A stretch of DNA of 64,000 bases from Clostridiales bacterium. GTDB taxonomy: Bacteria > Bacillota > Clostridia > Christensenellales > CAG-138. Made by a program: the position numbers and the translations under genes. How positions within the stretch are numbered: position 1 is the stretch's first letter; the number at the start of each line of letters is the position of its first letter. The stretch covers positions 5,224 to 69,223 of the forward strand of contig SFCQ01000005.1 of the NCBI GenBank assembly GCA_004558525.1. Reading direction: 5' to 3'. The notes under the pieces are model-generated. The model was not told the DNA's origin. It was given only the letters and a program-made list of their open reading frames with translations, and did no database searches. Below, piece by piece: positions 10,523 through 49,925 of this stretch.

Positions 10523-11053
10523 ATGCGATATACGAACAGGGACATGATAGAAAACGGCATGCTCGTGCCGGCGCCAAGAAGGGCAAAAAGGAACGTTGGC
10601 TGCCACATAAAAGCTACCGATGCTGAAAGGACGGCTTTCAAATGCACGGAAAAGAGGCTGAGCCAGCTTGGAATGGTGCAGCGCAGGCTTGAGGACGAAA
10701 GGAGCGACTACTGCGAGCTTAAGGAGCTTGGCGTGGAAGCGCTGAGGAGCCACGATGCTTCCTTTGTAAGCCTTATAAGCCCGGGCATGCGGCTTGACCC
10801 GATGGAGGCGCACGCGGTGCAGATGCAAAGGCTTGAAAAAAGGATATCCGCGGACGGGCGCGAGATAAAAAAGATGCGCTCCGCACTTAAGGATATAGAG
10901 AACGACCCGTATTACGCGGTGCTTGAGCTTTACTACGAGCATGGCATGAAGGACGAGGCGATAGGCGAAAAAATGGGCTACGACAGGAGTACCATCGCCA
11001 GACACCGCAGCAGGCTCGTCAGGCTGCTTGCATGCAGGCTTTATGGGGTATGA
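10523..11053 (+). CDS. ArpU/RinA-like phage late transcriptional activator (sigma-70 region-4-like HTH at the C-terminus)
   Basis: The C-terminus YYAVLELYYEHGMKDEAIGEKMGYDRSTIARHRSRLVRLLA is an HTH. It sits directly upstream of terL, as in many Firmicute phages. ATG at 10523 follows GGAAGGGAGAAAAGGA. Confidence 0.55.
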   Translation: MRYTNRDMIENGMLVPAPRRAKRNVGCHIKATDAERTAFKCTEKRLSQLGMVQRRLEDERSDYCELKELGVEALRSHDASFVSLISPGMRLDPMEAHAVQMQRLEKRISADGREIKKMRSALKDIENDPYYAVLELYYEHGMKDEAIGEKMGYDRSTIARHRSRLVRLLACRLYGV

Positions 11054-11056
11054 GCC

Positions 11057-12397
11057 ATGGAGCTTGTGCTTTACGGCAGGCCAAACCCGAAGCAGGCCGA
11101 GTTTTTTGCATCAACAGCCGCGCACACGGCGTATGGCGGAGCAAGGGGCGGCGGCAAAAGCTGGGCCATGCGGAGGAAGCTGGTGCTGCTGTGCCTCAGC
11201 TATCCGCAGCTCAACTGCCTGCTCATGCGCCGCACGCTGCCGGAGCTTAGGGAGAATCACGTTATACCCCTTTTAAGGGAGCTTGGCGACATGGTGCCGT
11301 ATAACTCCACGGAAAGGGTGTTCCGCTTCCCAAACGGCAGCAGGCTCAAGCTTGGCTATTGTGACGGCGCGAACGACGTATATCAATATCAGGGCCAGGA
11401 GTACGACGTTATAGGCCTTGAGGAGGCCACGCATTTTACGGAGGAGCAGATGCGCTTTATAACCACCTGCAACCGCACCACCAAGGCGGGCTTCAGGCCG
11501 AGGATGTACTACACCTGCAACCCGGGCAACGTGGGCCACGGCTGGGTGAAAAGGCTGTTTATAGACAAGCGCATGGAGAACGGCGAAAGGAGGGAGGATT
11601 ACGCCTTTATTCCGGCGAGCATATACGATAACGAGGTGCTGCTGAGCGCTAATCCTGAATATGTAAGGGCGCTTGAAAGCCTGCCGGAGGATATGCGGAG
11701 GGCGCACCTTTACGGCGACTGGGACGCGCATGCAGGCCAGTATTTCAGGGAGTTTTCAAGGCTTAAGCATATCGCCGCGCCGTTTGAGCTGCCAGCCTGG
11801 TGGCGAAGGTTCAGGTCCATGGACTGGGGCTATAACGACCCGTGCTGCGTGCTTTGGCACGCCGTTGACGGCGACGGCAGGGTATACACATACAGGGAAC
11901 TGTATGTGCGCGCCATGCGTGCGGATCAGGTGGCGAAAAGGATAAAGGAGCTGAGCGCAGACGAGGACATAGCATACACCGTGGCAAGCCCCGACCTATG
12001 GCAGAAGCGGGGCGCGATACTGAGAAGCGAGGGCGGCTTTGAGGGGGAAAGCCTTGCCGAGCTTTTCGCAAGGGAGGGAGTGCCCATGCTGCCGGCCGAC
12101 AATGCGCGGGTTGCCGGCTGGCAGAGGGTGCGCGCATACATGGCCGACGGAGCCGACGGCAAGCCCATGTGGCAGGCGTTCGACTGCTGCGAAAACCTTA
12201 TACGCACGCTGCCGATGCTCATGTACAGCGAGCATAACAGGGAGGACGCCGCGGACGGCGAGGATCACGCGCCGGAATCGCTGAGGTATGCGCTGATGTC
12301 AAGGCCTGTCAAGAGCAGCATAAAGCAAAAGCTTGCGCACAGGCCGTACGACCCATTTTCAACTCCCCGCCGAGAGGCCGGGTTTATGAACGAATAA
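11057..12397 (+). CDS. terL: Terminase large subunit
   Basis: Walker A GGARGGGKSW, Walker B-like VIGLEEATHF, and the nuclease-domain DWGYNDP motif. 446 aa, uninterrupted. Confidence 0.9.
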   Translation: MELVLYGRPNPKQAEFFASTAAHTAYGGARGGGKSWAMRRKLVLLCLSYPQLNCLLMRRTLPELRENHVIPLLRELGDMVPYNSTERVFRFPNGSRLKLGYCDGANDVYQYQGQEYDVIGLEEATHFTEEQMRFITTCNRTTKAGFRPRMYYTCNPGNVGHGWVKRLFIDKRMENGERREDYAFIPASIYDNEVLLSANPEYVRALESLPEDMRRAHLYGDWDAHAGQYFREFSRLKHIAAPFELPAWWRRFRSMDWGYNDPCCVLWHAVDGDGRVYTYRELYVRAMRADQVAKRIKELSADEDIAYTVASPDLWQKRGAILRSEGGFEGESLAELFAREGVPMLPADNARVAGWQRVRAYMADGADGKPMWQAFDCCENLIRTLPMLMYSEHNREDAADGEDHAPESLRYALMSRPVKSSIKQKLAHRPYDPFSTPRREAGFMNE

Positions 12398-12434
12398 AGC
12401 ATAAAGAACAAATTAAACCAAGGAGGAAAAAGAC

Positions 12435-14015
12435 ATGATCAAACAGGACGAAGCGAGGATAGAGCGTATATACGAGCTGTTCGATGAATACCGAAACGCA
12501 TACGCGGCTGAGTGGGAAAGGCTTGAAAGGTGCGAAAGGCTGTACAGGGGGGAGCATTGGCACGACGTTGCGCAAAAGGACAAGCGCGAGCCGAGGCCGG
12601 TGACGCCCGTGCTGCAATCCACCATAGAAAACGTGCGCGCAGACCTTATGGACCAGATGCCGGAGGCCGTTGTTACCGCAGACGATCCGGCAAACGCAAG
12701 GGCGGCAAGGGCGCTTACCGCGATATTGAGCGAGAACCACCGCCGCTGCCGCTACGACAGGGAATATGCAAAGCTGCTGCACGACCTGCTGATAGGGGGC
12801 TACATGGTGCAGGAGACAGGCTTTGACCCGCACTTTGACGGCGGGCTTGGCGGCGCGTTCCTCAGGCATGCTGACGCGCACAACGTGCTTTTCGACCCGC
12901 TTTGCGCGGACATACAGGACTCAAGGGCCATATTCAAGTTTGCGCCGTATCCGAAGGATTGGTTCAGGAGCCGCTATCCAGAGCATTACGACAAGCTTAA
13001 AAGCGACGCCAACACCATACTGCCGCAGGCGGACGCCCACCTTTCAAGGGGCAACGCCGAAAGGGTGCTTATGATAGAGTGCTGGGAGAGGGAATTTGAT
13101 AAGCAGACAGGCAGGTACAGGGTGCATGTGGCAAGGCTTGCGGGCAGGCGAATGCTGGAGGACAGCAGGAGCGTAAAGCCGGAGGGCTACTACGCCCACG
13201 GTGAATATCCCTTTGTGGTGACGCCGCTGTTTGCAAGAAAAGGCACCGCGCTTGGCTACGGCTTTATTGACATGTTCGCCACGCAGCAGCTTTATGCCGA
13301 CAAGCTTGACCAGATAGTGCTTAAAAACGCGCTTATGGCATCGCACAACAAGCTGCTCATAACCGGCGCATCCGGCTTCGATGCGGACGATCTGAGGGAT
13401 TGGTCAAAGGAGGTGCATCAGGGCGACAGCCTTGCGGGAATAACATGGTTCCCGACCGCGCCGCTGCCAAGCTATATCGCCCAATATGCCGAAAGCATAC
13501 GCCAGAGCATAAAGGAGGAATCCGGCTCAAACGATTTTTCAAGAGGCACGACCTATGGCGGCGTTACCGCGGCAAGCGCCATAGCCGCGCTGCAGGAGGC
13601 AAGCGGCAAAAGAAGCAGAATGATAGCAAGGCTTATACACGGCGCATTTGAGGAGGCCGTAAGGCAGGAGGTTGAGGTGGAAAGGGAGTATTGCTCATTC
13701 CCGCGCACGGTAAGGATAGAGGGGGAAGAGCCTATGAGCTTTACGAGCGAGGATATGTATGCATTGTCCGGCCTTAACAACAATCTGCCCATAGAGTTTG
13801 CCGTTACCGTAAAGGCGCAGAGGGAGAACAGGTTCACCGTTGCCGCGCATAACGAGACCGTGCTTTCACTTGTAAAGCTTGGCATGCTGGCGCCTGATAT
13901 AGCGCTTGAGCTTATGCTGTTCGACGGTAAGGAACAGGCGCTCGCCATGATGAAGGAAAGAAACGGGGCCAATAATGATATGCAGGCTAACGAAGCTCAA
14001 GCGATGCAAATGTAA
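12435..14015 (+). CDS. Portal protein
   Basis: 526 aa, immediately after terL, with strong RBS AAGGAGG. Size, acidic C-terminus and position are typical of portals. No database check was possible. Confidence 0.75.
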   Translation: MIKQDEARIERIYELFDEYRNAYAAEWERLERCERLYRGEHWHDVAQKDKREPRPVTPVLQSTIENVRADLMDQMPEAVVTADDPANARAARALTAILSENHRRCRYDREYAKLLHDLLIGGYMVQETGFDPHFDGGLGGAFLRHADAHNVLFDPLCADIQDSRAIFKFAPYPKDWFRSRYPEHYDKLKSDANTILPQADAHLSRGNAERVLMIECWEREFDKQTGRYRVHVARLAGRRMLEDSRSVKPEGYYAHGEYPFVVTPLFARKGTALGYGFIDMFATQQLYADKLDQIVLKNALMASHNKLLITGASGFDADDLRDWSKEVHQGDSLAGITWFPTAPLPSYIAQYAESIRQSIKEESGSNDFSRGTTYGGVTAASAIAALQEASGKRSRMIARLIHGAFEEAVRQEVEVEREYCSFPRTVRIEGEEPMSFTSEDMYALSGLNNNLPIEFAVTVKAQRENRFTVAAHNETVLSLVKLGMLAPDIALELMLFDGKEQALAMMKERNGANNDMQANEAQAMQM

Positions 14016-15354
14016 AACCGCAGGCTGAGCCCTGGCTGCGCTTAAGCGTTACCGCCGCCGCACTAAGCTCGCCGGATTCGGCGGTCCCGGGGGCGCCGAA
14101 GCATATCATGCCGTAGAGCGTTACGGTATCGCCCTCGCTTACCGCGTCATCTATGCGCAGGGCGTAGGCGGCGCGGGGATATACGGGCAGCATAACGCTT
14201 GAACCGTCAAGATATGTGCCGTCGGACTGGGTATATATATCCTCCGGAAGGGGAGAGGCGAAAAACGATGCGTATACGCGCTCATATTCTGCAATATCAA
14301 CGGCCACGAAGCGCGTCTGCTCGGTACCGGCGGTGAAGCGCCTGGTCATAAATACGGATACGATATACGGATCGGCAGATGAGGCCTCAAAGCCGGCATA
14401 ATCAAGCGCGCAGGCAGCCACAAGGTCGTTGAGCGGGCCTACGAGCGAGGCATACTCGTCAGCCGTGATAACATCGCCGACGCAATCGGGATAAAATGCC
14501 GCCCTGGGTATGATGAACGTCATAGGCCCGCTGCCCGCCTCAGAGAGCATGCCGTCCTCCAATATCACGCCAAAGCCCGATGCGGAGGCGAAAAAGCCCG
14601 AGTATATGTCTATTGCCAGGGCGATATCGTCAACGGTGACATCGCCAAAGGTGCTTTCGGGGTCGGAGCCGATTATGTTGAATATCTGCTGGGCGGCAAG
14701 GGGCTCTACGTCATAGACCCCTGCCGCTGCGGCAAGGGAGAGCCTTTCGCCGGCCTGAGAAAGCACTATGGCGCTTAAAGACGTTTCCAAATTGTCGCCA
14801 AAGGAGTTGGTTTGAGTGAAGAATATGTTTGTAAAGCCAAGTACGCTTTCAACATAGCAATCGACGACGGTGTGCGCGCCGCCCTCACCATCGGCATAGG
14901 GCAAAAGCTCGTTTGATACAAGCTCAAGCAGCTCCTCTTCATATTGGGCTATGGCCAAATTGGCTTTTTCGCTGCCAACAAAGCTATCCTCAAAGCTTGG
15001 AATGGTGTAATCGAGCCTGAACAAAGCCGCGCCTTCATCAGCGCCTTCGGGATAAAACACGGTACGGGTAACGAGCTTTACGCCGTCAGCCTCGCCCAAA
15101 GCAGTGCCGCCGCCGTTAGGCATGGAGATAGCAAAGGCCGTGCCAATGCCTGCTTGACTTGAAACGGCCGAAGGGGACGCCGTTTGCGCGGGTATCTCCA
15201 CCTGAGCCTGGCCGGAAAGAGCGGCATCGTGAGCATCGCCGGCTGTAACGGGAGCCTGAGCCGCCGCTTCACAGCCGAAAAGAAGCGCCGCGATAATGGC
15301 GCACAGAATAACGGATAAGCATTTTTTTAGCGATATATAGGAAGCAGATTTCAT
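13987..15354 (-). CDS. Lipoprotein of unknown function
   Basis: Signal peptide with lipobox LLFGC at the ATG at 15354 (RBS GAGGTG). Its 3' end overlaps the portal stop convergently by 29 nt. Confidence 0.7.
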   Translation of the reverse strand: MKSASYISLKKCLSVILCAIIAALLFGCEAAAQAPVTAGDAHDAALSGQAQVEIPAQTASPSAVSSQAGIGTAFAISMPNGGGTALGEADGVKLVTRTVFYPEGADEGAALFRLDYTIPSFEDSFVGSEKANLAIAQYEEELLELVSNELLPYADGEGGAHTVVDCYVESVLGFTNIFFTQTNSFGDNLETSLSAIVLSQAGERLSLAAAAGVYDVEPLAAQQIFNIIGSDPESTFGDVTVDDIALAIDIYSGFFASASGFGVILEDGMLSEAGSGPMTFIIPRAAFYPDCVGDVITADEYASLVGPLNDLVAACALDYAGFEASSADPYIVSVFMTRRFTAGTEQTRFVAVDIAEYERVYASFFASPLPEDIYTQSDGTYLDGSSVMLPVYPRAAYALRIDDAVSEGDTVTLYGMICFGAPGTAESGELSAAAVTLKRSQGSACGFTFASLELR

Positions 15355-15419
15355 AACAAAAGCACCTCGCTTGCAGGATACCATAATCAGGCCGCGGGTA
15401 CAACAGCATATTTTGTAAA

Positions 15420-15647
15420 TTGGGAGGGATTTATTTGGCAAAAACGCGCAAGGCCGCAATGAAGGCCACAATAGACGCATGCATACTGACGCTTATGCAG
15501 ATATGCACTAAAGAGGACGCAAGGGACGCGGACAGGATAGCCGCGGCGAAGCTGTTGGTAGACATATGCGCCGACAAGACCGCGCCCGAGCAGGACGGAG
15601 AGCTGAAGATAGTATTAAAAGACGTTCCGCCGGAATATATAAGATAG
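15420..15647 (+). CDS. Small ORF whose sequence resembles only the C-terminal segment of phage small terminase subunits
   Basis: DRIAAAKLLVDICADKTAPEQDGELKIVLKDVP resembles the common TerS C-terminal pattern (DR..AA.LL.. then a short beta tail). No N-terminal HTH is present. The start is uncertain: TTG at 15420 or ATG at 15459. Confidence 0.3.
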   Translation: MGGIYLAKTRKAAMKATIDACILTLMQICTKEDARDADRIAAAKLLVDICADKTAPEQDGELKIVLKDVPPEYIR

Positions 15648-15784
15648 AGCCGCAAAGAACATATAATATATATAATACTTGCTTCCGTTGAATTGCTGAG
15701 CATAGGCGGCGTACAATATAAAAAATCATATTACATATTTTGCACATACACAAATATCATCAGCGAACATAAGGAGGAACGAAC

Positions 15785-16975
15785 ATGCCGGCTTATGCAC
15801 ACAGAATGGACGGAATAACCGGAAGCGCGATAAGGGAGCTTTTCAAGCTTTTGGCGAAGGGGGATATAATATCCTTCGGCGGCGGCAATCCGTCCGCATC
15901 GAGCTTTCCTGTAGAGGACGTGAGGAGGATAACGGACGATCTGCTTGCAACCAAGGCTGAGCAGCTATTGCAGTACGGCGCGACGGAGGGCTATGCGCCG
16001 CTGAGGGCTGCGATAAGCGAGCATATGCTAAAGCCCAAGGGGGTAGTCGCGGACGAAAGCTGCATACTGCCGACCACCGGCTCCATACAGGGCATGGACC
16101 TTATATGCAGAATTTTTATTGACAGGGGGGACAGGGTGCTTGTTGAGGCGCCGACGTTCCTTGGCGTGCTGCAAACGCTCAATATTGCCGGGGCGGAGCT
16201 TGTGAGCGTACCGTCTGACGACGAGGGAGTAGTGACAGACGAGCTTGAGGAGCTTATAAAAAAGCACAGGCCTAAGCTTTTCTACTGCATACCGACATTC
16301 CAGAACCCTTCCGGCAAGACGCTTGGGCTTGAAAGAAGGAAGGCCATAGCAAGGCTTGCCACAAAATATGATATGATAGTTGCCGAGGACGACCCGTACT
16401 GCGACCTTAGATACCGCGGCGAGGCGCTGCCGCCGATAAAGAGCTTTGACGAATCCGGCCATGTTATTCTGCTCAACAGCTTTTCAAAGATAATATCGCC
16501 GGGCATAAGGGTTGGAAGCGCATACAGCACGCCCGAAATAATACGCAAGATGACAATAGCCAAGCAGGGCGTTGACACGCACACGCCCAACCTTACCCAG
16601 GCTATTGCGGCCGAGTTTTTGAACAGGGGGCTTTTGCCCGTACAGTTAAAGCGCATATGCCCCGAATACGGCGCAAGGCTTGACGCCATGCTTAACGCCA
16701 TGGACGCTTATTTCCCGGAGGAATGCAGCTTCACCAGGCCGGAAGGAGGCCTGTTCGTATGGGGCGAATGCAAGGGGCTTGATATGCTTAAGCTTGTAAG
16801 CAGGGCGACTGAAGAAAAGAAGATAGCCTATATACCGGGCGTACACTTCTATTCCCATCCTGAGGGCCGCGAGGGAACGTTCAGGCTGAACTTCTCCGGA
16901 ACGGCGTTTGAGAACATAGATACGGGCATACGCAAGATGGGCGAGCTGATGAAGGAAGCTTTGGCGGAGAAATAA
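15785..16975 (+). CDS. PLP-dependent aminotransferase (class I/II, 2-aminoadipate/aromatic type)
   Basis: FGGGNP, the NPSGKT motif, the SFSK PLP-lysine region, and the C-terminal FRLNFS. Confidence 0.85.
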   Translation: MPAYAHRMDGITGSAIRELFKLLAKGDIISFGGGNPSASSFPVEDVRRITDDLLATKAEQLLQYGATEGYAPLRAAISEHMLKPKGVVADESCILPTTGSIQGMDLICRIFIDRGDRVLVEAPTFLGVLQTLNIAGAELVSVPSDDEGVVTDELEELIKKHRPKLFYCIPTFQNPSGKTLGLERRKAIARLATKYDMIVAEDDPYCDLRYRGEALPPIKSFDESGHVILLNSFSKIISPGIRVGSAYSTPEIIRKMTIAKQGVDTHTPNLTQAIAAEFLNRGLLPVQLKRICPEYGARLDAMLNAMDAYFPEECSFTRPEGGLFVWGECKGLDMLKLVSRATEEKKIAYIPGVHFYSHPEGREGTFRLNFSGTAFENIDTGIRKMGELMKEALAEK

Positions 16976-17051
16976 AAGCTTAAACCCCAAAAAGCGGCGG
17001 TTGGGCGAACGCCTTTGCCATTTTGGGCGGCTTGCTTTTTGAAAATGGGCA

Positions 17052-17099
17052 TAAAAAGGGTCGCCGGCAAATTCACATGACGATGTGTGCCGGCGGCCC
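17052..17099 (-). terminator. Intrinsic terminator of the 109-aa orphan gene
   Basis: 12-bp stem GGGTCGCCGGCA/TGCCGGCGGCCC, followed by TTTTTA on the minus strand. Confidence 0.6.
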
Positions 17100-17145
17100 G
17101 TTTCCGTATTTGGCTGCCAGGCTCAGCTTGACGGAAGCATGGCTT

Positions 17146-17475
17146 TTACAAACCGAAATGAATAATCCATTTGTTCTCAAAAACGGCTCTTATCATAAGC
17201 GCTTTTAATTCGGACAATCCGCGCCTGTTGTCAATAACCGCTATGAATGCGGGCATTGAAGTTGGCGGAATAAGAGTAACGCCTGTGTAAGCAAGCCCTT
17301 TTCCGGGAACATCAATGGTATGCCAAAAGAAATCTATATCGTTAAATTGAGCAACAATATCCTCCAGATAATCATCGTTAACAGATATGCAGTTGTATTT
17401 CTGCGGTTGGTATTCATCATATCTATGACCGTGCTTTGGAGCCTCCTGCATAATGCCAAATTCATGCTTTGCCAA
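17146..17475 (-). CDS. Hypothetical protein (109 aa), compositionally foreign
   Basis: Visibly AT-richer than its neighbours and uses ATT for Ile. It has its own terminator. I recognise no motif. Confidence 0.5.
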   Translation of the reverse strand: MAKHEFGIMQEAPKHGHRYDEYQPQKYNCISVNDDYLEDIVAQFNDIDFFWHTIDVPGKGLAYTGVTLIPPTSMPAFIAVIDNRRGLSELKALMIRAVFENKWIIHFGL

Positions 17476-17558
17476 TTTGCCACCACCTTTGTTACCATCA
17501 AAAAAGGGCGGCAGTAATGATTATGATTACAGCCGCCAAGGCTAATATGCCCGCCCGT

Positions 17559-18470: not shown

Positions 18471-18638
18471 TTTTTGAAAACATCTCCTTATCATGATTTT
18501 CAGGTTTGCTTCCTTGATTATAACACGGACAAAGCGATTATGGGAATAAGCATAGCCGCTGTATAAGCCAAAGAAGTGTGGGAATAATACAGCTATGATG
18601 CGTCGGCATGGCCGACAGCCAATAAGGAGGCATAAACA

Positions 18639-19097: not shown

Positions 19098-19166
19098 ACA
19101 TAACGGTTGGCGAAAAGGTGGGAATGCCCCCACCTTTTTCTGTTGCTGCCTGCTTACAAATACAGA

Positions 19167-40359: not shown

Positions 40360-40365
40360 GCTGCT

Positions 40366-40960: not shown

Positions 40961-40970
40961 TAACACGCTG

Positions 40971-41018: not shown

Positions 41019-41022
41019 GGCG

Positions 41023-41050
41023 AGCGCCGGCCGTAACGGGCGCTTTTTTT
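41023..41050 (+). terminator. Intrinsic terminator 2 in the module-2 leader
   Basis: Stem AGCGCC..GGCGCT, followed by T7. The inverted pair TGTGCG-taaaa-CGCGCAC follows at 41050-41067, just before the RBS. Confidence 0.6.
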
Positions 41051-41081
41051 GTGCGTAAAACGCGCACGGAAAGGAGACGCG

Positions 41082-41729: not shown

Positions 41730-41797
41730 GCGGCAAAGCAGAGCCGGAACAGAAACAGAAAATCAAAAGCTGAAACAAAAAGAAAGGAAATAAAACA

Positions 41798-42991
41798 ATG
41801 AACACCAACACCACTTTTTCTACATCAGATAGCACCGGCCTCAACAAGCAGTACTTCGACAGGCAGCTTCTTGAAGGCGCTAAGACCCGCTTCGTATTCA
41901 CCAAGTACGGCCAGAAGCGAACCGTCCCCCTCAACAACGGCAAGAGGGTGGAGTTCCGCCGATGGAACCTTTTTGACATTGACGACAAGATGTGCGCCCT
42001 TGAGGAGGGCAGGACTCCGGACGGGCAGTCCCTTTCCCAGAGCAGCGTTGAGGCAGGGCTTACCCAGTACGGCGCATATGTCGAGATAAGCGACCTGCTT
42101 GAGGATACCGCCTACGACAAGGTGCTTAGCGACAGCGCGGAGCTGCTTGGCGAGCAGATAGGCACCGTTATGGAATGGGTCACCCGAGACGCAATTTCAA
42201 GCGGCAACAACGTGCAGCGCGTGGGCGGCAAGTCCAGCCGAAGCGAGATAGCCGCAACGGATACGCTGACTGTAAACGAGGTGAGGAAGGCCGTGCGCAC
42301 GCTCAAAAAGGCCAAGGCGCGCCCCTTCACTATGGACGGGCGCAGGCCCCACTATGTTTGCATATGCTCCCCTGACGCGGTGTACGACCTGCAGAACGAT
42401 TCGCTTTGGCAGGATGTTTCCAAGTATTCCAATGCCGAAAGCATATACACCGGCGAGATCGGCAGGCTTTTCGGCGTGGTATTTGTTGAATCCACTGAAG
42501 CCAAGGTGATACACCAGGCGGTACACACCAAGGTGGCGAGCCACACAGCCAACAGCGCGGACATTACGCTTGCTGAGATAAGCGACGCCGCTGCCGCCTA
42601 CATGGGCCGCGAAGGCGCCAGGATAAACATAGGCGACAACGAGTATACCGTGAAGAGCGTAGACAAGGCCAATAATATGATAACCCTTACCGCCGCCGTG
42701 ACCACCGCAATAGCCGCCGATACCGTTGTATACAGCAAGGAGGCCGGCGCGCTTGCAAGCGACAAGACCGCCGCAGACGTACACATGACCCTTATATTTG
42801 GCAAGGACGCATACGGCGTTATAGACCTTGAGAACGGCGCGATGGAGAGCATAGTAAAGCCCCGCGGCAGCGCAGGCGCGGACGACCCGCTGAATCAGCG
42901 TTCCACAGTAGGCGCGAAGGTAACGGGCTTTGCGGCAGTTATACTGAACGATCTGTGGATAGTGCGCATAGAGCATGGCGTAAGCGCCTGA
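41798..42991 (+). CDS. Major capsid protein (HK97 fold, N4-gp56-like family)
   Basis: N-terminal pattern QYFDRQLLEGAKTRFVF..YGQKRTVPLNNGKRVEFRRW and the C-terminal DLWIVRIEH are typical of this capsid family. Confidence 0.8.
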   Translation: MNTNTTFSTSDSTGLNKQYFDRQLLEGAKTRFVFTKYGQKRTVPLNNGKRVEFRRWNLFDIDDKMCALEEGRTPDGQSLSQSSVEAGLTQYGAYVEISDLLEDTAYDKVLSDSAELLGEQIGTVMEWVTRDAISSGNNVQRVGGKSSRSEIAATDTLTVNEVRKAVRTLKKAKARPFTMDGRRPHYVCICSPDAVYDLQNDSLWQDVSKYSNAESIYTGEIGRLFGVVFVESTEAKVIHQAVHTKVASHTANSADITLAEISDAAAAYMGREGARINIGDNEYTVKSVDKANNMITLTAAVTTAIAADTVVYSKEAGALASDKTAADVHMTLIFGKDAYGVIDLENGAMESIVKPRGSAGADDPLNQRSTVGAKVTGFAAVILNDLWIVRIEHGVSA

Positions 42992-43050
42992 TGCGGCTTT
43001 ATTAAAAATCAGGAAGAGCAAACAGATAAGCATATAAGGAGGGAAGGAGC

Positions 43051-43335
43051 ATGGACATGATGAGCGAAAGGGAAATGGAACGCGAAATCAGCGCCGCGCT
43101 CGACGCTCAGCGCGCCGAGGAACAGGTTGAAATCATGCTCGCTAAGCTTCCGGGGGTAAGCAATTACCCCTGGGAGGGCGCGCTGAACGGCCACTTTTAC
43201 AGGATAAAAAGGGGAGTCAGGGTGAGAGTGCCAAGGAGCATAGCTGAGCTGATAAGCGAAAACGAGCGCATATGCGAGGAAAGCCGGAGCGAGCTGAACG
43301 AATACGCGAAAGGCGCGGGCAAAAGGCTTGGATAA
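43051..43335 (+). CDS. Phage structural-module protein, unknown function (94 aa)
   Basis: Strong RBS AAGGAGGGAAGGAG. In-operon position after the capsid gene. Confidence 0.55.
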   Translation: MDMMSEREMEREISAALDAQRAEEQVEIMLAKLPGVSNYPWEGALNGHFYRIKRGVRVRVPRSIAELISENERICEESRSELNEYAKGAGKRLG

Positions 43336-43346
43336 GGGGTGAGGAT

Positions 43347-43895
43347 ATGACGCTGAACGACATTATAGTTAACGCGCTTATGCAGATGGACAGGGGGCAT
43401 GACGCGCAGACGCTTGACATATGGCGAGACAAGCTGACGGGCTTTGCCAACGATGCGATAGCCGACCTTGCGATGACGATAAAGCCTGTACGGACGGAAA
43501 AGGCCGAGATAGACAACAGCTGCATAGATTGCTCAAGGCTGCAAAGGGAATGCGTTAAGGTGGTAAGGGTACGCATAAACGGCAGGGATATGCCGTTTTA
43601 TGGCGACGATGCCGACGGCAGCATAATACTGCTTGACAACACGGACGAGGAGCAAGCGGAGATAACATACCGCTTTATGCCCAAAACGCTTAGCGCCGCA
43701 ACAGATGAGCCGGAGCTGCCGGTAAGGTGCCACAACCTGATAGTTACATACGTTGTTGCGAGGGAAAGGGCCGCGGGAGACGTTGGCACGCAAAGGGGAG
43801 GCAACATATATTTTCAGCTATACGAAGCCGGGAAGCTCAAGCTAAGGCCGCACATAGGCGGAGCCGACGCATACAGGCTTGTGAACAGGTGGTGA
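43347..43895 (+). CDS. Putative head-tail adaptor (P22 gp4-sized, 182 aa)
   Basis: Assigned on position and size only. ATG at 43347 follows GGGGTGAGG. Confidence 0.45.
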   Translation: MTLNDIIVNALMQMDRGHDAQTLDIWRDKLTGFANDAIADLAMTIKPVRTEKAEIDNSCIDCSRLQRECVKVVRVRINGRDMPFYGDDADGSIILLDNTDEEQAEITYRFMPKTLSAATDEPELPVRCHNLIVTYVVARERAAGDVGTQRGGNIYFQLYEAGKLKLRPHIGGADAYRLVNRW

Positions 43896-43899
43896 GGCA

Positions 43900-45324
43900 A
43901 TGTCGAGGACTATATACCACATAAACGAGTTTGTGGGAATAGATCAATCCCATGACGAGAACGGCCTTAAACCCATGATGAGCCCCGACGCATGCAATAT
44001 GGACACCACCGACGGCAATTTGAGCGTGGCCAGGGGGTGCGTCAGGCACATACAGGCGGCCATACCCGGAGATGGGGGAATACACGCGCTGAAGATATTC
44101 TCTACGCTTTCTGGGGACATGTTCATAGCCGCGGCGGGTGAGAGCATATACGCCTACAAGGACGGGGAATGGAAAAGCGTGTACACATATTCAGACGGGC
44201 TGAGCGAGCACCATTTTGACTTTGTACAGGCGCAGATAGCGTCAAAGGACTATTTGATAATAGCAAGCGGGGAAAAGCAGCTTGTAAAGTTTGACGGAAC
44301 GACGGCTGCGCCGTTCGGCAGCGAGGAGGAATTATCAAACAAGGCTGTGGGCTACCTTGCGATGTACAGAAGCAGGCTGTTTTCGGCAGGAGACAAGGAA
44401 AACCCGAACAGGCTGTATTGGTCCCAGCTGCCAGGCGGGACAAGGAGCATAGAAAGCTGGGGCCCCGTGGAGGCCAGCCCGAACGTTGAAGGCGGCCATA
44501 CCGAGGTAGGCAGCATGAAGAGCGACCCGATAGTAGGCCTTGCGGCGCTGAGCAATCAGCTTATCATATTCAAGCAGAACAGCATATACAGGCTGCTTGG
44601 AGATAAACCGAGCAACTTTATTGTTGAAGAGGTGGAGGCAAGGAACGAAAGCACCGTTTATACGGCCATAGTAAAGCGCGCTGGCAGCTTATTCTTCCTT
44701 ACAAAGGGAGGATTGTGCATATTCAACGGCGTTAACGCGCAAACGATGGCCGACGCAAGGCGTATACAGGGGATACTGAAAAACTCATCGACAGCAGACA
44801 GCCGTGGGGCGATATGCCGCGACAAGCTGTACTTTACCATAAGCGAAAACAACAAATGCGCCATGATAGAATACGACCTTACAAGGGGCGCGTACATGCT
44901 GAGGAGAGGCTTTACGGCATACGATATATGCTCCAAGGGCGGCACGGTATACCTGGTCAACGAGAACCGCTGCGTATGCAGGCTGGACGAAGGTACGAGC
45001 TACGATGGCGCTCCCGTGAACGCATACTGGCAGACGCCTAAGACCGACCTTTACGACAAGGGCGGGATAAAGGCCATGCGAGCGCTTTATTTAAGGGGTC
45101 AAAGCGACGATGCCGACAGCGCGACGCTGATAGACGTGACGATAGGCGGGTGCGTAACGACATACCGCACGCTTTTGCCCAAAAGCGAAAACGACGTGCT
45201 CGAGGTGCCGCTGCAAAACGAGGGAAGGACGTTCTGCATGCGCATATACAATGAAGCCGGAGGCAGCTTTACGCTGAAAAGCGGCATGGAGGCCGAGTTT
45301 GACGCAAGGAGGAGGAGCGAGTAA
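43900..45324 (+). CDS. Putative tail hub / DNA-stabilisation protein (P22 gp10-sized, 474 aa)
   Basis: Size and position mirror gp10 of P22-like podoviruses. Beta-rich sequence. No search was possible. Confidence 0.45.
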   Translation: MSRTIYHINEFVGIDQSHDENGLKPMMSPDACNMDTTDGNLSVARGCVRHIQAAIPGDGGIHALKIFSTLSGDMFIAAAGESIYAYKDGEWKSVYTYSDGLSEHHFDFVQAQIASKDYLIIASGEKQLVKFDGTTAAPFGSEEELSNKAVGYLAMYRSRLFSAGDKENPNRLYWSQLPGGTRSIESWGPVEASPNVEGGHTEVGSMKSDPIVGLAALSNQLIIFKQNSIYRLLGDKPSNFIVEEVEARNESTVYTAIVKRAGSLFFLTKGGLCIFNGVNAQTMADARRIQGILKNSSTADSRGAICRDKLYFTISENNKCAMIEYDLTRGAYMLRRGFTAYDICSKGGTVYLVNENRCVCRLDEGTSYDGAPVNAYWQTPKTDLYDKGGIKAMRALYLRGQSDDADSATLIDVTIGGCVTTYRTLLPKSENDVLEVPLQNEGRTFCMRIYNEAGGSFTLKSGMEAEFDARRRSE

Positions 45325-45500
45325 TGGCGATGGACATGAGGGCGCTATACACCATAGCGCTTACTGCGCAGAGGGAAAGCCCTACGGCTGAGGAGGACAT
45401 AAAGGCGAACGAAAACTGCCTTAACCAGAATTTCACCATATTGGCGCAGAAGATAGAGGAGCTTGAAAACAGGGTAAAGGCCCTTGAAAGCGCGACATGA
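45324..45500 (+). CDS. Small coiled-coil protein (58 aa)
   Basis: TAATG overlap with the upstream stop. Heptad-like C-terminus (ILAQKIEELENRVKALE). Not in the ORF track, which omits ORFs under 60 aa. Confidence 0.4.
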   Translation: MAMDMRALYTIALTAQRESPTAEEDIKANENCLNQNFTILAQKIEELENRVKALESAT

Positions 45501-45568
45501 GGCGAGATATGAACTAAAAACCGCAGCAAAAACAGACACAGCATAAAAACAAACAGGGAGGAATAACA

Positions 45569-46480
45569 ATGGCAAGCTATTATGTTACCGGCTACAGCAC
45601 GCCGCAGGGCGTGAGCAGCCGGGCGGACGTGAGAGAATGGCAGAACAGGCTTGGGGTCAAGGCGGACGGGATATGGGGCCCCAAGACACAGGCTGCATAC
45701 GAGCAATACAATGCGGCAAACTCGCTCAACACGTTCCAAAACTACTATAACACGATTATGGGCGCGCTGAGCGTGCCTTCGATAAGCGTAAACGTACCCT
45801 CAAAAGAGGCGCTTAAGGCGGATATATCAAGCTACCTCAGGCCGAGCGTTGATCTTGCGATATCGAACAGGCGCGCAAGGGGAGAAACGAACAAGGCGGA
45901 GCTTGATGCGGACGCCGTGAGCCGCGGCATGGGCGCATCGACATATGTGACCAGCATGAAGGGCCGCGAGGACGGCAAGGTGGAAAGCGACATTTCAATG
46001 ATGGAGGCGCAATACACCGCCACGCTTGCCGAGCGCATAGCGAGCGCGCTTGAAAAATACGAGGCGATGAGCATGCAGGCGCAGATGCAGAACGCTCAGT
46101 ATGCCTACAACGCGCAGAGTACGGCGCTTGGGCTGGCATCGCAATGGTTCAACAGCTACATGAACAACGCCGCAAAAAACGTGAAGCGCAGCGGCGGCAC
46201 ATCCTCAAAGGGCGGACTTGGCCTGGCAAGCAAAAACATGTCCACAAAGGATTATATTCGCTTTGTAGGCGGGCTTTCCGGCTCCGAAAGATCGATGCTG
46301 TACAATTCCGGCTCCACAGAATGGGCCCTTATGCGCCTTGAGCTGCAGGACGCGCTCGGCAAGGACGGCTACAACGAGGTACGCTCGGCCTTCCCGGTGG
46401 CGCCGCTTAGGACAACGGGTATAGGCGCTTCCAAATCCACAAACAGGAGGAGCGGATCATGGGCGACAATACGACGGTAA
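45569..46480 (+). CDS. Virion-associated protein with an N-terminal peptidoglycan-binding domain
   Basis: VREWQNRLGVKADGIWGPKTQAAYEQ is a PG_binding_1 motif. The remainder is helical and Ser/Ala/Met-rich. Confidence 0.55.
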   Translation: MASYYVTGYSTPQGVSSRADVREWQNRLGVKADGIWGPKTQAAYEQYNAANSLNTFQNYYNTIMGALSVPSISVNVPSKEALKADISSYLRPSVDLAISNRRARGETNKAELDADAVSRGMGASTYVTSMKGREDGKVESDISMMEAQYTATLAERIASALEKYEAMSMQAQMQNAQYAYNAQSTALGLASQWFNSYMNNAAKNVKRSGGTSSKGGLGLASKNMSTKDYIRFVGGLSGSERSMLYNSGSTEWALMRLELQDALGKDGYNEVRSAFPVAPLRTTGIGASKSTNRRSGSWATIRR

Positions 46481-47550
46481 GCGTGAAAAAGGAGTTTGGA
46501 GTATCGCTTGATATTGCAAGGAGCATATCTAACCGAGAATTTACCGTTGTTGAAGGCGACACCGGCAATGTGCTTAAGATAACGCTGAATAACGACGGTG
46601 CGCCGGTAGATCTGACAGGATGCAGGGTGATGGCGCTGTTTTCAAAATCCGACGGCACAACGGTGTGCCAGGACAGCGGGGAAGCGGGCAGCGGAGTAAG
46701 CGTTGGCGGCACGAACAATAACGAGATAACGATTGCCCTTTTTGCTTCGTCCGTATCGCCGGGCATGGTGGAATGCGAGATACAGGTGTACTCCGGGAGC
46801 GGCCAGGAGACGCTTATAACGACGGCACAGTTCAACTTCAAATGCAGAAGGGGCATACTTAACGCGGACACCGTGGCTGCCGTTCCGCAATACCCTATAC
46901 TTGTATCCCTTATAAGGGACATGAACGAGATTGAGGCGAGCACAGAAAACCTGATAGAGAGCAACATCAGTATACAGGCCGCGGAGGAGAAGCGCGTGCT
47001 GGCCGAAACGCAGAGGAGCAACGCCGAAAATACCAGAAACAGCAACGAGGCCGAGCGCAAGCAGGCCGAAATGGAAAGGGATGCAAGCGAAAAGGTACGC
47101 GCCAACAAGTTCAACCAAAAAGAGCGCGAGCTTGACGAGCTGATGGATACGGCAAGCGGGCTTATAGCGGAGCTTCAGGGGGTCGGAGAGGGCTCAACGC
47201 CTATAAGGAGCATAGTCGGCATACTTAAGGGCGACGGTACGGAGATATCCGCCGCGCAGTCCGGCGTGGATTACGAGGCGCCGGCGGCTGAAGCTTCGGC
47301 ATTGCCCGAATCCGGCACGGCACTGAGCGAGGACACGGTGTATACGCCAACTTCGGCCGTAGGCACATATCAGTTCGTGCCGCCTGCGTCCGGCTGGGCG
47401 CACGGCAGCTTTACAACGGCCGAAAACGCGGCGGTGACTTTTGCCGGCGGCAGCAGGTTTCTCGGCCAAGCGCCCGAAATAGCAGGGGGCAAGACGTATG
47501 AGTTTGACGTGCTTGACTGCGTATGGGCGATACAGGAGGTAAGCGGCTGA
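46459..47550 (+). CDS. Tail fibre / receptor-binding-type protein with a BppU-N-like Ig domain and central coiled coil
   Basis: FTVVEGDTGNVLKITL..PVDLTGCRV..ITIALF..ECEIQVY pattern, then an EAERKQAEMERDASE coiled coil. Confidence 0.5.
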   Translation: MGDNTTVSVKKEFGVSLDIARSISNREFTVVEGDTGNVLKITLNNDGAPVDLTGCRVMALFSKSDGTTVCQDSGEAGSGVSVGGTNNNEITIALFASSVSPGMVECEIQVYSGSGQETLITTAQFNFKCRRGILNADTVAAVPQYPILVSLIRDMNEIEASTENLIESNISIQAAEEKRVLAETQRSNAENTRNSNEAERKQAEMERDASEKVRANKFNQKERELDELMDTASGLIAELQGVGEGSTPIRSIVGILKGDGTEISAAQSGVDYEAPAAEASALPESGTALSEDTVYTPTSAVGTYQFVPPASGWAHGSFTTAENAAVTFAGGSRFLGQAPEIAGGKTYEFDVLDCVWAIQEVSG

Positions 47551-48374
47551 TGATACCCAAAAGATTTGCGTTAAGGCGAAGAATGTTCGCCAAAAAGGGC
47601 GGCGGCGGGGGCGTTGCCGCCCTTAGTATAAGCTATAGCGGCGAATGGACGGATCACGGCATGGTGGCGATGACAGGGGGCGAATACAGACTGCTTGAGT
47701 TTAGATCGTCAGGCACGCTGAGTATAGCGAAGCCGGTGAATTGCGAGGTATGCGTTGTTGGCGGCGGTGCGGACGGCAGCAGCGGCAGCAAAACAGAAGG
47801 CCAAGCCGGAGTCGGGGGCGCGGGAGGCTACCTTAAGAACGCAAGCCTGACTGCTTACAGCGGCGGAGGCGTTATCATCGGCGCGGCAAAGGGTGCATCC
47901 TCCATAGGAGGCATAGTGGCCAACGGCGCAGCATCAAAGAACGGAGGTACCGGCGCAGGCGGAGCGGACATACAGGCAGCCGGCAAGGGCGACGGAATAA
48001 GCAAGTATCCATTCGGAGACAGCGCATATGAACAATGGCAGGACAAGCCGCACTGCGGAGGCGGCTCCGGAGGAGTGCTTGAATATGTGCCGGAGGACGA
48101 ATACTACTTTGGCGGCGAGGGCGGCACGAACGGCGGCGACGGCAAAGCGGCTGCCGAAAGCACAAAATCGATAACGCACGCCACGCCGGGAGGCAAGTAC
48201 GGCGGGGGCAGCGGAAGCAAGGGCAAGGGCTCCGCGGCGAGCTACTATGGCTCGGGCGGCGGAGGCGGCACATATTATGTACGCAGCAGCTCAAGCGAAA
48301 CGGCGGCTGCCGGAGGAAGCGGGTATCAGGGCATAGTGTACCTGAGGATAGCAAAAACACAGTCAGAGGAATAA
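47550..48374 (+). CDS. Glycine-rich tail-fibre-like protein
   Basis: ATG at 47550 overlaps the upstream TGA, with GGAGG upstream. Repeated GGxGG tracts throughout. Confidence 0.55.
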   Translation: MIPKRFALRRRMFAKKGGGGGVAALSISYSGEWTDHGMVAMTGGEYRLLEFRSSGTLSIAKPVNCEVCVVGGGADGSSGSKTEGQAGVGGAGGYLKNASLTAYSGGGVIIGAAKGASSIGGIVANGAASKNGGTGAGGADIQAAGKGDGISKYPFGDSAYEQWQDKPHCGGGSGGVLEYVPEDEYYFGGEGGTNGGDGKAAAESTKSITHATPGGKYGGGSGSKGKGSAASYYGSGGGGGTYYVRSSSSETAAAGGSGYQGIVYLRIAKTQSEE

Positions 48375-48398
48375 AGAAAGGAGCATCAGCGGATATAC

Positions 48399-48656
48399 AT
48401 GAGATACGCGGTGATAAAAAACGACACGGTAGAAAACGTTATAGTCGCCAAAAGCGAAAACAAGGCCGAGCTTGAAAAGCTGCTTTCGGCCGAGCTTGAG
48501 GACGCGTCTATATACGGGCTTGAGGCGGGCGACATGCGCATAGACGGAAAGTGGACAAGAAACCATGCCGGCGAGCAGATAACGCTTGATGAAAACGCGA
48601 CATACGACGAGCTTTTAAGCTATATAGAGGAACTGGAGGGGCTTATATATGGTTAA
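48399..48656 (+). CDS. Hypothetical phage protein (85 aa)
   Basis: In-operon ORF with host-type codons. Confidence 0.45.
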   Translation: MRYAVIKNDTVENVIVAKSENKAELEKLLSAELEDASIYGLEAGDMRIDGKWTRNHAGEQITLDENATYDELLSYIEELEGLIYG

Positions 48657-48765
48657 GCGCAGGGAAATACAGCAAAGGATAGCAAGGGCAAAGGCCGAGC
48701 TTATTAAAAAGCTCGGCAGGCCTTATGCCGGAGACGGGGTAAAGGAAGATGGAAAGAAGGAGTGA
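48649..48765 (+). CDS. Possible very small basic ORF (38 aa) bridging to the endolysin gene
   Basis: The ATG overlaps the preceding stop and the ORF's own stop overlaps the endolysin start. No other support. Confidence 0.25.
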   Translation: MVKRREIQQRIARAKAELIKKLGRPYAGDGVKEDGKKE

Positions 48766-49501
48766 ATTTGCGGCGTGGCTTGAGCGGCAAACCGGCAGCG
48801 CATATGTGTGGGGCGCGCAGGGACACAGGGTGGAGCGCGATGGCAGCGTCCACCTGAGGGACAGGGAGGTGAGCCCTAACTACATAAGCTGGACAAAGCT
48901 GAGGGAGACGAGCCGCAAAAACGCGGAAAGAGCGGCAGCCTATATAAGAAAAAAGCTTGATGAGGGGGCGGAAAGCATCAGCTGCTACGATTGCAGCGGC
49001 CTTATAATGGCTTATCTTAAGGAGATGAAGGGCTACCTAACATGCGACATGACGAGCAGGGCGCTGTTTTTGATAACTGAGGAGATTGCTAAAGACGAGC
49101 TTGACATCGGCGACCTTGTATTCAGGCACAACGGGGAGAGGATAGTACATGTAGGCGCATATGTAGGCAACGGCTTTGTTATAGACAGCCGCGGAAGGGA
49201 CGCGGGCGTTGTTAAGCAGAGCATAAGCAGCTTCCCGTGGAACAGGTTCGGCAAGCTCAAGCTGCTGGACAGGAGCGAAGAGACTCAAGAGCATGTGCCA
49301 TACTACGGCAAATGCTGCGGAAAAAGCGTTTATGTAAGAAGCGGAGCCGGTACGGCATATCCCATACTTGCAACGGCGCACAGTGGAGACAAGCTGATCG
49401 CGCTGCCCGAGGAAAACGGCTGGCAGAGGATAGCCATATGCTGCAAAGGAAAAATGCTTACAGGATACATGAGCGCAAAATATATAGAATATGCATATTG
49501 A
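48749..49501 (+). CDS. Endolysin: NlpC/P60 cysteine peptidase plus C-terminal SH3 domain
   Basis: YVWGAQG..YDCSGLI (catalytic Cys), HVGAYVG (His), and an SH3-like C-terminus VYVRSGAGTAYPILA..GWQRI. Confidence 0.8.
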   Translation: MERRSEFAAWLERQTGSAYVWGAQGHRVERDGSVHLRDREVSPNYISWTKLRETSRKNAERAAAYIRKKLDEGAESISCYDCSGLIMAYLKEMKGYLTCDMTSRALFLITEEIAKDELDIGDLVFRHNGERIVHVGAYVGNGFVIDSRGRDAGVVKQSISSFPWNRFGKLKLLDRSEETQEHVPYYGKCCGKSVYVRSGAGTAYPILATAHSGDKLIALPEENGWQRIAICCKGKMLTGYMSAKYIEYAY

Positions 49502-49514
49502 AGGGAGAATTATT

Positions 49515-49925
49515 ATGAGCGAAAAGGCTGTTATGTGGATAAAAGGAGCGATAGCCGCCCTGGGCGGGGCCGCGGCTTATCTTTGGGGACCATGGGACGC
49601 GCTGATAAACGCGCTTATAGCGCTGGTGGCGCTTGACTACGTTACGGGCGTTATATGCGCGGCTGCCAATAAAAGGCTGAGCAGCGAGATAGGCTTTAAG
49701 GGGCTTATAAAAAAGGCGCTTATATTTGCGCTGGTAGCCGTGGCCGGAGTTGCGGACAAGGTGATACCGGCTACGAATCAGGCGATACGCGCGGCGGTGA
49801 TACTGTTTTACATAGCTAACGAGGCGATAAGCATACTTGAAAACGCTGCTGAGCTTGGCTTGCCGGTACCTGAAAAGCTTAAGGCGGTACTTATTAAAAC
49901 AAAAGGCGAGGATAAGGCAGAGTAA
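49515..49925 (+). CDS. Holin (phage_holin_4-type, 3-4 TM)
   Basis: LDYVTG.. and FKGL.KK motifs, with TM helices. RBS GAAGGGAG. Confidence 0.75.
   Translation: MSEKAVMWIKGAIAALGGAAAYLWGPWDALINALIALVALDYVTGVICAAANKRLSSEIGFKGLIKKALIFALVAVAGVADKVIPATNQAIRAAVILFYIANEAISILENAAELGLPVPEKLKAVLIKTKGEDKAE

Follow-up and report, generated by a model that had tools for sequence, protein, structure and literature searches.

The stretch of DNA analysed here (the window) comprises 64,000 nt of contig SFCQ01000005.1 from assembly GCA_004558525.1 (forward-strand positions 5,224-69,223) and is only part of the genome of a Clostridiales bacterium, assigned by GTDB to Bacillota; Clostridia; Christensenellales; CAG-138. 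It contains the virion genes of a short-tailed (podovirus-type) particle, a candidate gene transfer agent (GTA)-like element, which are distributed in two blocks, M1 (10523-14015) and M2 (41082-49925). The window proteins were obtained from an open reading frame (ORF) listing and searched against the Pfam, PHROG and NCBIfam profiles. They were then mapped onto related loci from scans of genomes, metagenomes and viral contigs, which are labelled with L-numbers. A preliminary description of this DNA had reported intact + strand virion genes in these two blocks, and all the genes that it named are confirmed. The virion set is complete, since it includes the large terminase (TerL), portal, capsid, adaptor, nozzle, fibre, endolysin and holin.

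M1 is a tight unit of three genes:

10523-11053, + strand, regulator of 176 amino acids (aa), helix-turn-helix (HTH) / sigma70-region-4-like (PHROG 36, E 1e-11; HTH_23; weak sigma70-ECF match)
11057-12397, + strand, TerL, large terminase (Terminase_6N/3; PHROG 979, E 2e-53)
12435-14015, + strand, portal, P22/SU10-type (PF16510, E 1e-25; PHROG 156, E 2e-52)

The first of these genes had been described as coding for an ArpU-like activator. The protein does not match the NCBIfam ArpU model and matches instead PHROG 36, annotated as transcriptional regulator; its score with the NCBIfam model of sigma70-ECF region 4 is weak (25.7 bits, cutoff 42.9). A single-sequence AlphaFold (AF2) model of the regulator is too poor (pLDDT 67) for a structure search. 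The protein may act as a late activator or as an antiterminator. Its gene ends 4 nt ahead of the TerL start. In the clusters of relatives with portal identities of about 60-63% the gene is divergent from TerL, and this orientation argues against the regulator being the small terminase (TerS). The Walker A, Walker B, coupling and nuclease motifs of TerL show no variation over the clade. Damage to the N-terminal part of TerL, suggested by calls of 404 or 443 aa in some strains, was rejected because the start codon and the Walker A region are identical in all strains; the shorter calls in some assemblies are gene-caller artefacts.

M2 carries the remaining head genes, the tail genes and the lysis genes, and is followed by a gene for an ATPase:

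41082-41729, + strand, scaffold candidate of 215 aa, named by position only
41798-42991, + strand, major capsid protein, N4-gp56 family (TIGR04387, 251.7 bits, cutoff 60; PHROG 1357, E 4e-67)
43051-43335, + strand, small protein of 94 aa, head-completion or decoration candidate, order kept in all relatives
43347-43895, + strand, head-to-tail adaptor, SU10-adaptor-like (PF24175, E 9e-6; 26.7 bits, cutoff 27)
43900-45324, + strand, predicted tail nozzle/hub of 474 aa, beta-propeller of the P22 gp10 / T7 gp12 type (AF2 and Foldseek)
45324-45500, + strand, ORF of 58 aa after the nozzle gene, called in all assemblies
45569-46480, + strand, protein of 303 aa with an N-terminal peptidoglycan (PG)-binding motif (PG_binding_1, E 2e-4), kept in relatives
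46459-47550, + strand, fibre/baseplate protein with a BppU N-domain (PF10651, E 6e-7; several tail-fibre PHROGs)
47550-48374, + strand, distal tail / receptor-binding candidate of 274 aa, Gly-rich type (the homologue in locus L077 has PF21722 Gly_rich_2)
48399-48765, + strand, small ORFs of 85 aa and 38 aa (the latter at 48649-48765), called in all assemblies
48749-49501, + strand, endolysin, NlpC/P60 and SH3 (Pfam)
49515-49925, + strand, holin, Phage_holin_4_1 (PF05105, E 5e-41)
49998-50921, + strand, DnaC/IstB-like AAA+ ATPase (NF005304, 228.6 bits; PHROG 50)

The gene list previously given for M2 stands, but it omitted the ORFs at 45324-45500 and 48649-48765 and the DnaC-like gene at 49998-50921, located after the holin gene.

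The assignment to short-tailed phages is backed by structure and not by protein size alone. The 474-aa protein, previously noted as hub-sized, was modelled from 38 homologues (AF2 pLDDT 92.4), and a Foldseek search with this model retrieved podovirus nozzles, namely those of Pa223 (9nwi_Y; E 4e-23, TM 0.80) and P22 (gp10, 8eap_D; E 1e-16), together with further matches to VP1, SU10 and T7 gp12. The protein is therefore predicted to be a podovirus tail nozzle. Sequence searches of the PDB with the portal, capsid, adaptor and nozzle gave nothing useful, the nozzle being found by structure search only. Genes for a contractile sheath, a tube or a tape measure were found in neither block.

The other M2 products are less uniform in their conservation. 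The scaffold candidate has no family match in Pfam or PHROG; in contiguous relatives it sits between the portal and capsid genes. ORFs of 58-63 aa occupy the position of the 58-aa ORF in L078, L160, L162 and L175. The 303-aa protein is a candidate tail-associated wall-binding or ejection protein. With respect to the fibre protein, conservation between species is confined to the N-terminal domain; the region of the 274-aa gene is replaced in other species, and the 85-aa ORF has a homologue in L077. The stretch from the BppU N-domain to the endolysin is swapped between species, as seen in L078/L079 (about 15300-17650) and L160 (14536-15266). Even genomes with an identical capsid protein differ in this stretch, where they carry either a 404-aa gene or a 317-aa collagen-like gene. 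The pattern suggests that receptor binding has diversified.

The DnaC-like ATPase gene follows the lysis genes in five lineages (the window, L077, L106, L160 and L162), and its downstream neighbours differ among the four loci where they are readable. The only strong terminator there, at 50953-50983, comes after this gene. The ATPase gene seems to travel with M2 and is probably a member of it.

The arrangement in two blocks is fixed in the species. The preliminary description had allowed for a contig misassembled at the junctions and for a presence restricted to one strain. Both junctions are reproduced by more than 40 independent assemblies, and the location of the two blocks does not vary among the sampled assemblies of the species. 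In public assemblies, 892 blocks list the exact portal protein and 499 the exact capsid protein, and look-ups anchored on either of them gave the same neighbours as in the window in all 20 contexts examined. Host genes (queT and the aminotransferase gene) were also used as anchors, so that loci were not picked on phage genes. The window QueT protein is present in 3,625 blocks, and its gene is followed by the scaffold and capsid genes in 10/10 places examined; the aminotransferase is present in 2,596 blocks and is preceded by the regulator, TerL, portal and lipoprotein-like genes in 10/10 places examined. Two long contigs (156 kb and 367 kb) hold both host anchors about 26 kb apart. The samples come mostly from human gut, and also from pig gut.

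The identity of portal and capsid homologues falls off smoothly from 100% to about 55%. They belong mostly to metagenome-assembled genomes (MAGs) of Clostridia or Christensenellaceae, and contigs of 100 kb to 1.6 Mb carry many of them. A scan of a genome collection with the single portal sequence gave 11 loci, the species of the window not being among them; the metagenome scan with an alignment yielded far more information. In about 90 loci with portal identities of about 58-100%, which represent at least seven species-level clusters, the TerL-portal pair is never followed by the scaffold or capsid gene. The next species (portal identity 85%; one record is named Christensenellaceae bacterium Phil1) has both insertion sites as in the window: lipoprotein and aminotransferase genes come after M1, and M2 lies between spoIIR-sleB-ypeB-amylase-queT and the DnaC-like gene. 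The question raised earlier, whether related genomes carry the blocks at the same two loci, can thus be answered for this species, and the portal/scaffold break is common to the whole clade.

The layouts of the other relatives are diverse. In L077 and L106 (portal 70%), M2 and the DnaC-like gene are followed by three host genes and M1, the gap between the two blocks being 4 kb in L077. In L175 (portal 61%) TerL-portal comes directly after M2, and in the cluster with about 58% portal identity TerL-portal stands alone among host genes. On a 5.6-kb contig (L109), BppU-like and g85-like tail genes are found directly upstream of a portal gene of 62% identity, with no TerL between them.

Loci with portal identities of 56% or less are colinear, in the order (TerS)-TerL-portal-scaffold-capsid-adaptor-nozzle, and some of them are on viral contigs of 36-40 kb. 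Six of these viral contigs carry TerS directly ahead of TerL; two of the TerS proteins match Pfam GP3_package (P22 gp3 type), and the other four resemble one of these two. For the non-structural half of the viral contig L036, PHROG annotation was uninformative, replication and lysogeny genes not being recognised there. A chromosomal locus, L174 (7640-20476; portal 57%), has portal, scaffold, capsid, adaptor and nozzle genes contiguous, and adjoins an orthologue (71% identity) of the methyltransferase gene located upstream of M1 in the window. A contiguous prophage in close relatives would have spoken for a recent split of one strain, but the contiguous relatives are distant (portal 57% or less). 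In a simple neighbour-joining (NJ) tree of portals, computed without support values, all split loci form one clade, to which the contiguous loci are sister or outgroup, L174 being among the contiguous ones. This is most simply explained by a single ancestral break, after which the chromosomes were rearranged.

All module genes are intact in 10-12 strains of the species, and module orthologues are intact at 57-86% protein identity. Within the species, most module genes have a ratio of nonsynonymous to synonymous polymorphism (pN/pS) of 0.03-0.27, and the scaffold candidate has one of 0.51, compared with 0.01-0.44 for flanking host genes; the counts of single-nucleotide polymorphisms behind these values are small, and the values of the portal and capsid are biased because loci were picked by exact protein identity. 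The pS values are the same for module and flanking host genes. Against the next species, the corresponding ratio of substitutions (dN/dS) is 0.09-0.30 for the modules and 0.10-0.59 for flanking host genes, these ratios being rough because dS, about 1 in both sets, is near saturation. Purifying selection, which the preliminary description had proposed to look for, is thus apparent, with dN/dS well under 1 and comparable to that of neighbouring host genes. Since dS is equal and dN/dS is low, the modules have diverged at the pace of their neighbours and have been constrained in doing so. At the level of the sequences compared, these results demonstrate that both blocks are inherited with the chromosome under purifying selection.

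Putative regulatory sequences precede each block:

10401-10420, no strand assigned, CGGTACA-N6-TGTACCG palindrome ahead of the regulator promoter, candidate operator or activator site
10447-10475, + strand, regulator promoter, sigma-A-like, TTGACG-17-TATCAT (promoter scan)
10452-10463 and 10487-10498, + strand, LexA-type boxes GAACAAAAGTTT and GAACAAACGTTT, respectively (GAAC-N4-GTTT), at the regulator promoter
40857-40900, + strand, four GCRCAC(A) repeats with 11-12 nt spacing upstream of the M2 promoter, candidate activator sites
40932-40960, + strand, M2 promoter, sigma-A-like and strong, TTGAAA-17-TATAAT (11/12 consensus positions)
40970-41051, + strand, M2 leader with two intrinsic-terminator hairpins, each with a U tract, before the scaffold gene

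The motif GAAC-N4-GTTT, which we take to be the core of the Gram-positive LexA site (Cheo box), occurs seven times in the window against 1.9 expected, and none of 100 shuffles reaches seven. A box of this type is found at the homologous position in 9/10 species, where the surrounding DNA is barely alignable, and it is kept at the regulator promoter in clusters with portal identities of 60-100%. In L115 and L028 (60% and 63% clusters), the sole box of the locus lies just upstream of the divergent regulator gene. The phage-type relatives have no LexA-type box before TerS or TerL. The M2 promoter itself contains such a box in L162 and a version with one mismatch in L078. The palindrome is also retained: an equivalent inverted repeat (GGTAC-N-GTACC) occupies its position in eight species despite diverged surroundings.

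With respect to M2, its leader RNA is predicted to fold with -47.3 kcal/mol (z -2.9). L160, L162 and L175 show the same combination of a promoter and a terminator leader ahead of M2, and L115 and L028 show it ahead of TerL; TGCRCA repeats similar to those of the window are present upstream of the late modules in these same five loci. In L160, a locus of the sister species, about 300 nt of inserted DNA bounded by or containing long inverted repeats (resembling a miniature inverted-repeat transposable element) separates the two terminators of the M2 leader, at about 9050-9290. Rfam detected no known RNA family in the window, the M2 leader included.

The DNA between the blocks, about 27 kb, is of host type, as the preliminary description had listed it, except that the first gene after the portal is not the aminotransferase gene but the following one:

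13987-15354, - strand, lipoprotein-like gene of 455 aa, with a signal peptide and the lipobox LLFGC, converging on the portal gene

This gene overlaps the portal end by 29 nt and its product has no match in Pfam or PHROG. A homologue comes after the portal in most loci of the split clade and evolves much faster than it (49% identity where the portal has 85%, and 31% where the portal has 60%). Its membership of the system is uncertain; it could be a system-linked surface protein (a receptor or immunity protein?) or merely an old flanking gene. The order continues with the aminotransferase gene, a small variable island, an AraC regulator, the ornithine fermentation operon, OTC, two DUF6034 genes, spoIIR-sleB-ypeB, an MBL-fold gene, an amylase gene, a DUF1858 gene and queT. 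The variable island (16975-19700) contains a NADAR-domain gene and ORFs without assignment, is partly missing in strains L010 and L207, and has the codon usage furthest from that of the modules (correlation of relative synonymous codon usage, RSCU r, 0.78-0.81). The DUF6034 genes (30823-33922) are tandem paralogues of about 515 aa, one copy of which is fragmented in assemblies L015 and L016.

The codon habit that the blocks had been said to share with the intervening genes is borne out by RSCU r values of 0.96 for M1 and 0.98 for M2 against those genes. ATA accounts for 0.84-0.86 of the Ile codons in M1, M2 and the intervening genes alike, and the codon usage of the modules is like that of strongly biased host genes. 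The ATA/AGG/CTT bias of M1, M2 and the ornithine/sporulation stretch (21299-40845) is stronger than that of the left and right flanks of the window, and this shared stronger bias brings to mind the selection for translational efficiency that has been reported for GTA genes.

Several phage functions had been described as absent. Searches of the window with Pfam, PHROG and NCBIfam, together with a repeat search, agree in finding no integrase, repressor, tape measure, TerS or att-like repeats, the direct repeats around either block being short matches at chance level. No genes for integration, lysogeny or autonomous replication were found in or beside either block, with the DnaC-like ATPase as the sole exception. 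TerS was detected neither by Pfam nor by tblastn in the window or in the chromosomal loci; when two phage TerS proteins were compared by tblastn with the window and with the full set of loci, phage-type contigs alone gave matches.

The published system closest to this arrangement is FpGTA of Faecalibacterium prausnitzii, a podovirus-like element encoded at two chromosomal loci (PMC12946183, Nat Commun 2026; preprint 2024), so that the remark of the preliminary description that it was not aware of any podovirus-like system of this kind in Clostridia is outdated. FpGTA operon 1 codes for a possible TerS, TerL, portal, a Prp-like protein, an N4-gp56 capsid, an adaptor, a P22 gp10-like nozzle and others, and operon 2, 125 kb away, for a BppU-like fibre, a receptor-binding protein, holin and endolysin (PMC12946183). 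Its particles, which measure 40 nm and contain 8.5-9 kb of host DNA, have been demonstrated experimentally (PMC12946183). Both systems lie in the chromosome of gut Clostridia, at two loci, with no integrase or replication module and with lysis genes ending the tail locus, and they have the same part types in the same order. The FpGTA capsid (RCH50849.1) bears the same NCBI family name as that of the window (TIGR04387), and the three part types annotated in FpGTA through PDB entries 8eap (nozzle), 7sp4 (adaptor) and 4v96 (fibre) are all present in the window; this likeness is one of annotation and fold. Because of this strong similarity, the gene set of the window is not a new kind of system: it is of the same kind as the two-locus podovirus-type element already published.

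There are also clear differences. In FpGTA the head-packaging operon is intact and the break comes after the head-nozzle genes, with the fibre and lysis genes 125 kb off, whereas in the window the break is between portal and scaffold, spans 27 kb, and leaves the nozzle, fibre and lysis genes with the capsid gene. FpGTA has a putative TerS without a DNA-binding domain, while the window has no TerS candidate; between portal and capsid, FpGTA has a Prp-like gene in place of the scaffold candidate. The hosts also belong to different orders, and the window, unlike FpGTA, has a sigma-like regulator apparently controlled by LexA boxes and an attached DnaC-like ATPase. Moreover, FpGTA particles have been seen, whereas the system of the window is known here from its genes.

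The better-known GTAs, namely those of the RcGTA type in Alphaproteobacteria (Rhodobacter, Caulobacter), BaGTA and VSH-1, are siphovirus- or myovirus-like, have HK97-type heads derived from unrelated phage lineages and belong to Gram-negative hosts. The element of the window resembles them in its phage origin, vertical inheritance, purifying selection, location at more than one locus, lack of integration and replication functions and dependence on lysis genes, and it may also resemble them in host regulatory wiring and in lost or weakened TerS specificity. With respect to control, these GTAs depend on CtrA/GafA or other regulators, the window having instead a sigma-like regulator behind a LexA-type box. 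PBSX of Bacillus subtilis is SOS-inducible, packages host DNA (13 kb), lyses its producer and cannot propagate. It is, like the element of the window, chromosomal and found in Firmicutes, but its genes form a single uninterrupted cluster of the myovirus type, in which sheath, tube and tape measure are encoded, none of which the window has. The P22-like and SU10-like podophages and the viral contigs L036, L179 and L180 carry homologous portal, TerL (65% or less), capsid (65% or less), adaptor and nozzle genes in the same order; they are contiguous, and several phage-type relatives have a gp3-like TerS, in contrast to the split, TerS-less and host-flanked genes of the window. An intact temperate prophage would have an integrase, a repressor, replication genes, att repeats and a contiguous genome, none of which was found here. 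Capsid-forming phage-inducible chromosomal islands (PICIs) have an integrase, alpA and a replication module and no tail, whereas the window has tail and lysis genes, and no integrase or replication genes were found. No paper was found in the literature on the Christensenellales gene set of the window.

Taken as a whole, we consider it probable, short of confident, that the two blocks constitute a GTA-like podovirus-type particle element kept by the host lineage. The preference for a host-retained particle producer over a prophage corpse, already expressed in the preliminary description, is well supported by the comparative evidence, that is, by the shared loci, the synteny, the clade-wide break and the dN/dS values. 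According to this explanation, an ancestor of the Christensenellales-type lineage would have fixed a P22/SU10-like podophage with an N4-gp56-family capsid, which would then have lost the small terminase, integration and most replication functions, and which was broken between portal and scaffold, as the loci show. At present, inactivation of LexA by DNA damage would derepress the promoter region at 10447-10498, leading to the production of the sigma-like regulator, TerL and portal. The regulator would in turn enable RNA polymerase to start at the M2 terminator leader or to read through it, so that scaffold, capsid, adaptor, nozzle, fibres, endolysin and holin would be produced. TerL, without a sequence-specific small terminase, would fill the heads with host DNA, and lysis would release short-tailed particles whose fast-changing fibre would bind related cells. 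SOS induction of the system is probable in view of the conserved boxes, and we infer the cascade from LexA release through the regulator to late-module activation or antitermination.

Different observations weigh against this interpretation. Terminases of the P22 type normally need a small subunit; the gene for such a subunit may lie in another part of the genome, or TerS may have diverged beyond detection. LexA control is also common in ordinary prophages. A hallmark of GTAs is a head that holds less DNA than the gene set needs; for the window element, particles with such a head, their DNA and the expression of the genes are predictions. The regulator is absent beside TerL in the cluster with about 58% portal identity and in L175, and L174 has no TerL or lysis genes within 10 kb, so that the system may be decaying in those lineages. 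That the break between portal and scaffold occurred once is the simplest history on an unbootstrapped NJ tree, and the limits given above for the polymorphism and substitution values point in the same cautionary direction.

Among the other explanations, the one that survives best, although it is unlikely, is that the particles resemble PBSX in being SOS-induced killer particles or a programmed-lysis device, which would transfer no genes and package DNA as a by-product. The LexA-type box at the regulator recalls the SOS-inducible PBSX, and the swapping of distal fibre genes between species, even with identical capsids, is what would be expected of strain-targeting weapons. M2 also has a PG-binding protein, and some relatives add wall-degrading domains. 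However, podovirus tails have no contractile sheath for puncturing cells. In addition, TerL and portal are conserved as strongly as the structural genes and the nuclease/ATPase motifs of TerL are invariant, so that DNA packaging is not expected to be irrelevant. The authors of the FpGTA study leave the killer-particle or programmed-lysis option open for their own system (PMC12946183).

It is considerably less probable that the blocks depend on a helper, that is, on another prophage or element that supplies TerS, replication or induction and whose DNA is packaged or which exploits the blocks as satellite-like or shared parts. The absence of TerS near TerL, when phage-type relatives have one, fits this proposal, and the window is only 64 kb of the genome. 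Helpers, however, are usually strain-variable, whereas these blocks are fixed, with synteny conserved between species; neither an integrase, a primase or a replication gene nor any further hallmark of satellites was found, and the virion set is complete, tail and lysis genes included.

A slightly poorer account is that of an inert old prophage cut by rearrangement and left intact by chance or hitch-hiking, the unlikely corpse mentioned above. Integrase, repressor, replication functions and TerS were not found, and the layouts (M1-27 kb-M2 in the window, M2-4 kb-M1 in L077, M2 directly before M1 in L175) speak of repeated rearrangement. However, inert remains would hardly keep about 16 ORFs intact in every strain sampled, with intact orthologues whose dN/dS resembles that of host genes, invariant catalytic motifs and regulatory motifs preserved while the surrounding DNA diverged. 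Finally, the proximity of the sporulation/germination genes spoIIR-sleB-ypeB just upstream of M2 in two species might suggest that the genes were co-opted singly for non-particle roles, such as DNA translocation or wall remodelling in sporulation, but this is very improbable, as the whole colinear virion kit is retained with holin and endolysin, the M2 neighbours are unrelated in other species and no sporulation-type promoter evidence was found.

The GTA-like element kept by the host lineage is of interest because GTA-like packaging of bacterial DNA seems to be common in the human gut, and the responsible genes are known only for Faecalibacterium. The locus is a concrete, conserved candidate gene set for a second and very prevalent gut lineage (the QueT protein alone being found in 3,625 assembly blocks), and it offers regulatory handles: the LexA-type box, a dedicated regulator and terminator leaders. 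GTA-type packaging has been reported from faecal virus-like particles for two Christensenellaceae MAGs, QANA01 with 6.3 kb and HGM11616 with 4.1 kb, which are other genomes than that of the window and for which no gene cluster was named (PMC12946183). We put forward, tentatively and with somewhat less conviction than the GTA-like reading itself, that the window contains the missing gene set for this 4-6 kb packaging, which would imply an ancient domestication of a podophage across the family or order, TerS-less packaging, and a two-step circuit of LexA, regulator and terminator leader. The series from contiguous phages with TerS, through permuted adjacent blocks, to widely separated blocks lets one follow, as is seldom possible, how a phage would turn by stages into something like a host organelle. 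If the reading is true, then, together with FpGTA, it would make podovirus-type GTAs a general feature of gut Clostridia.

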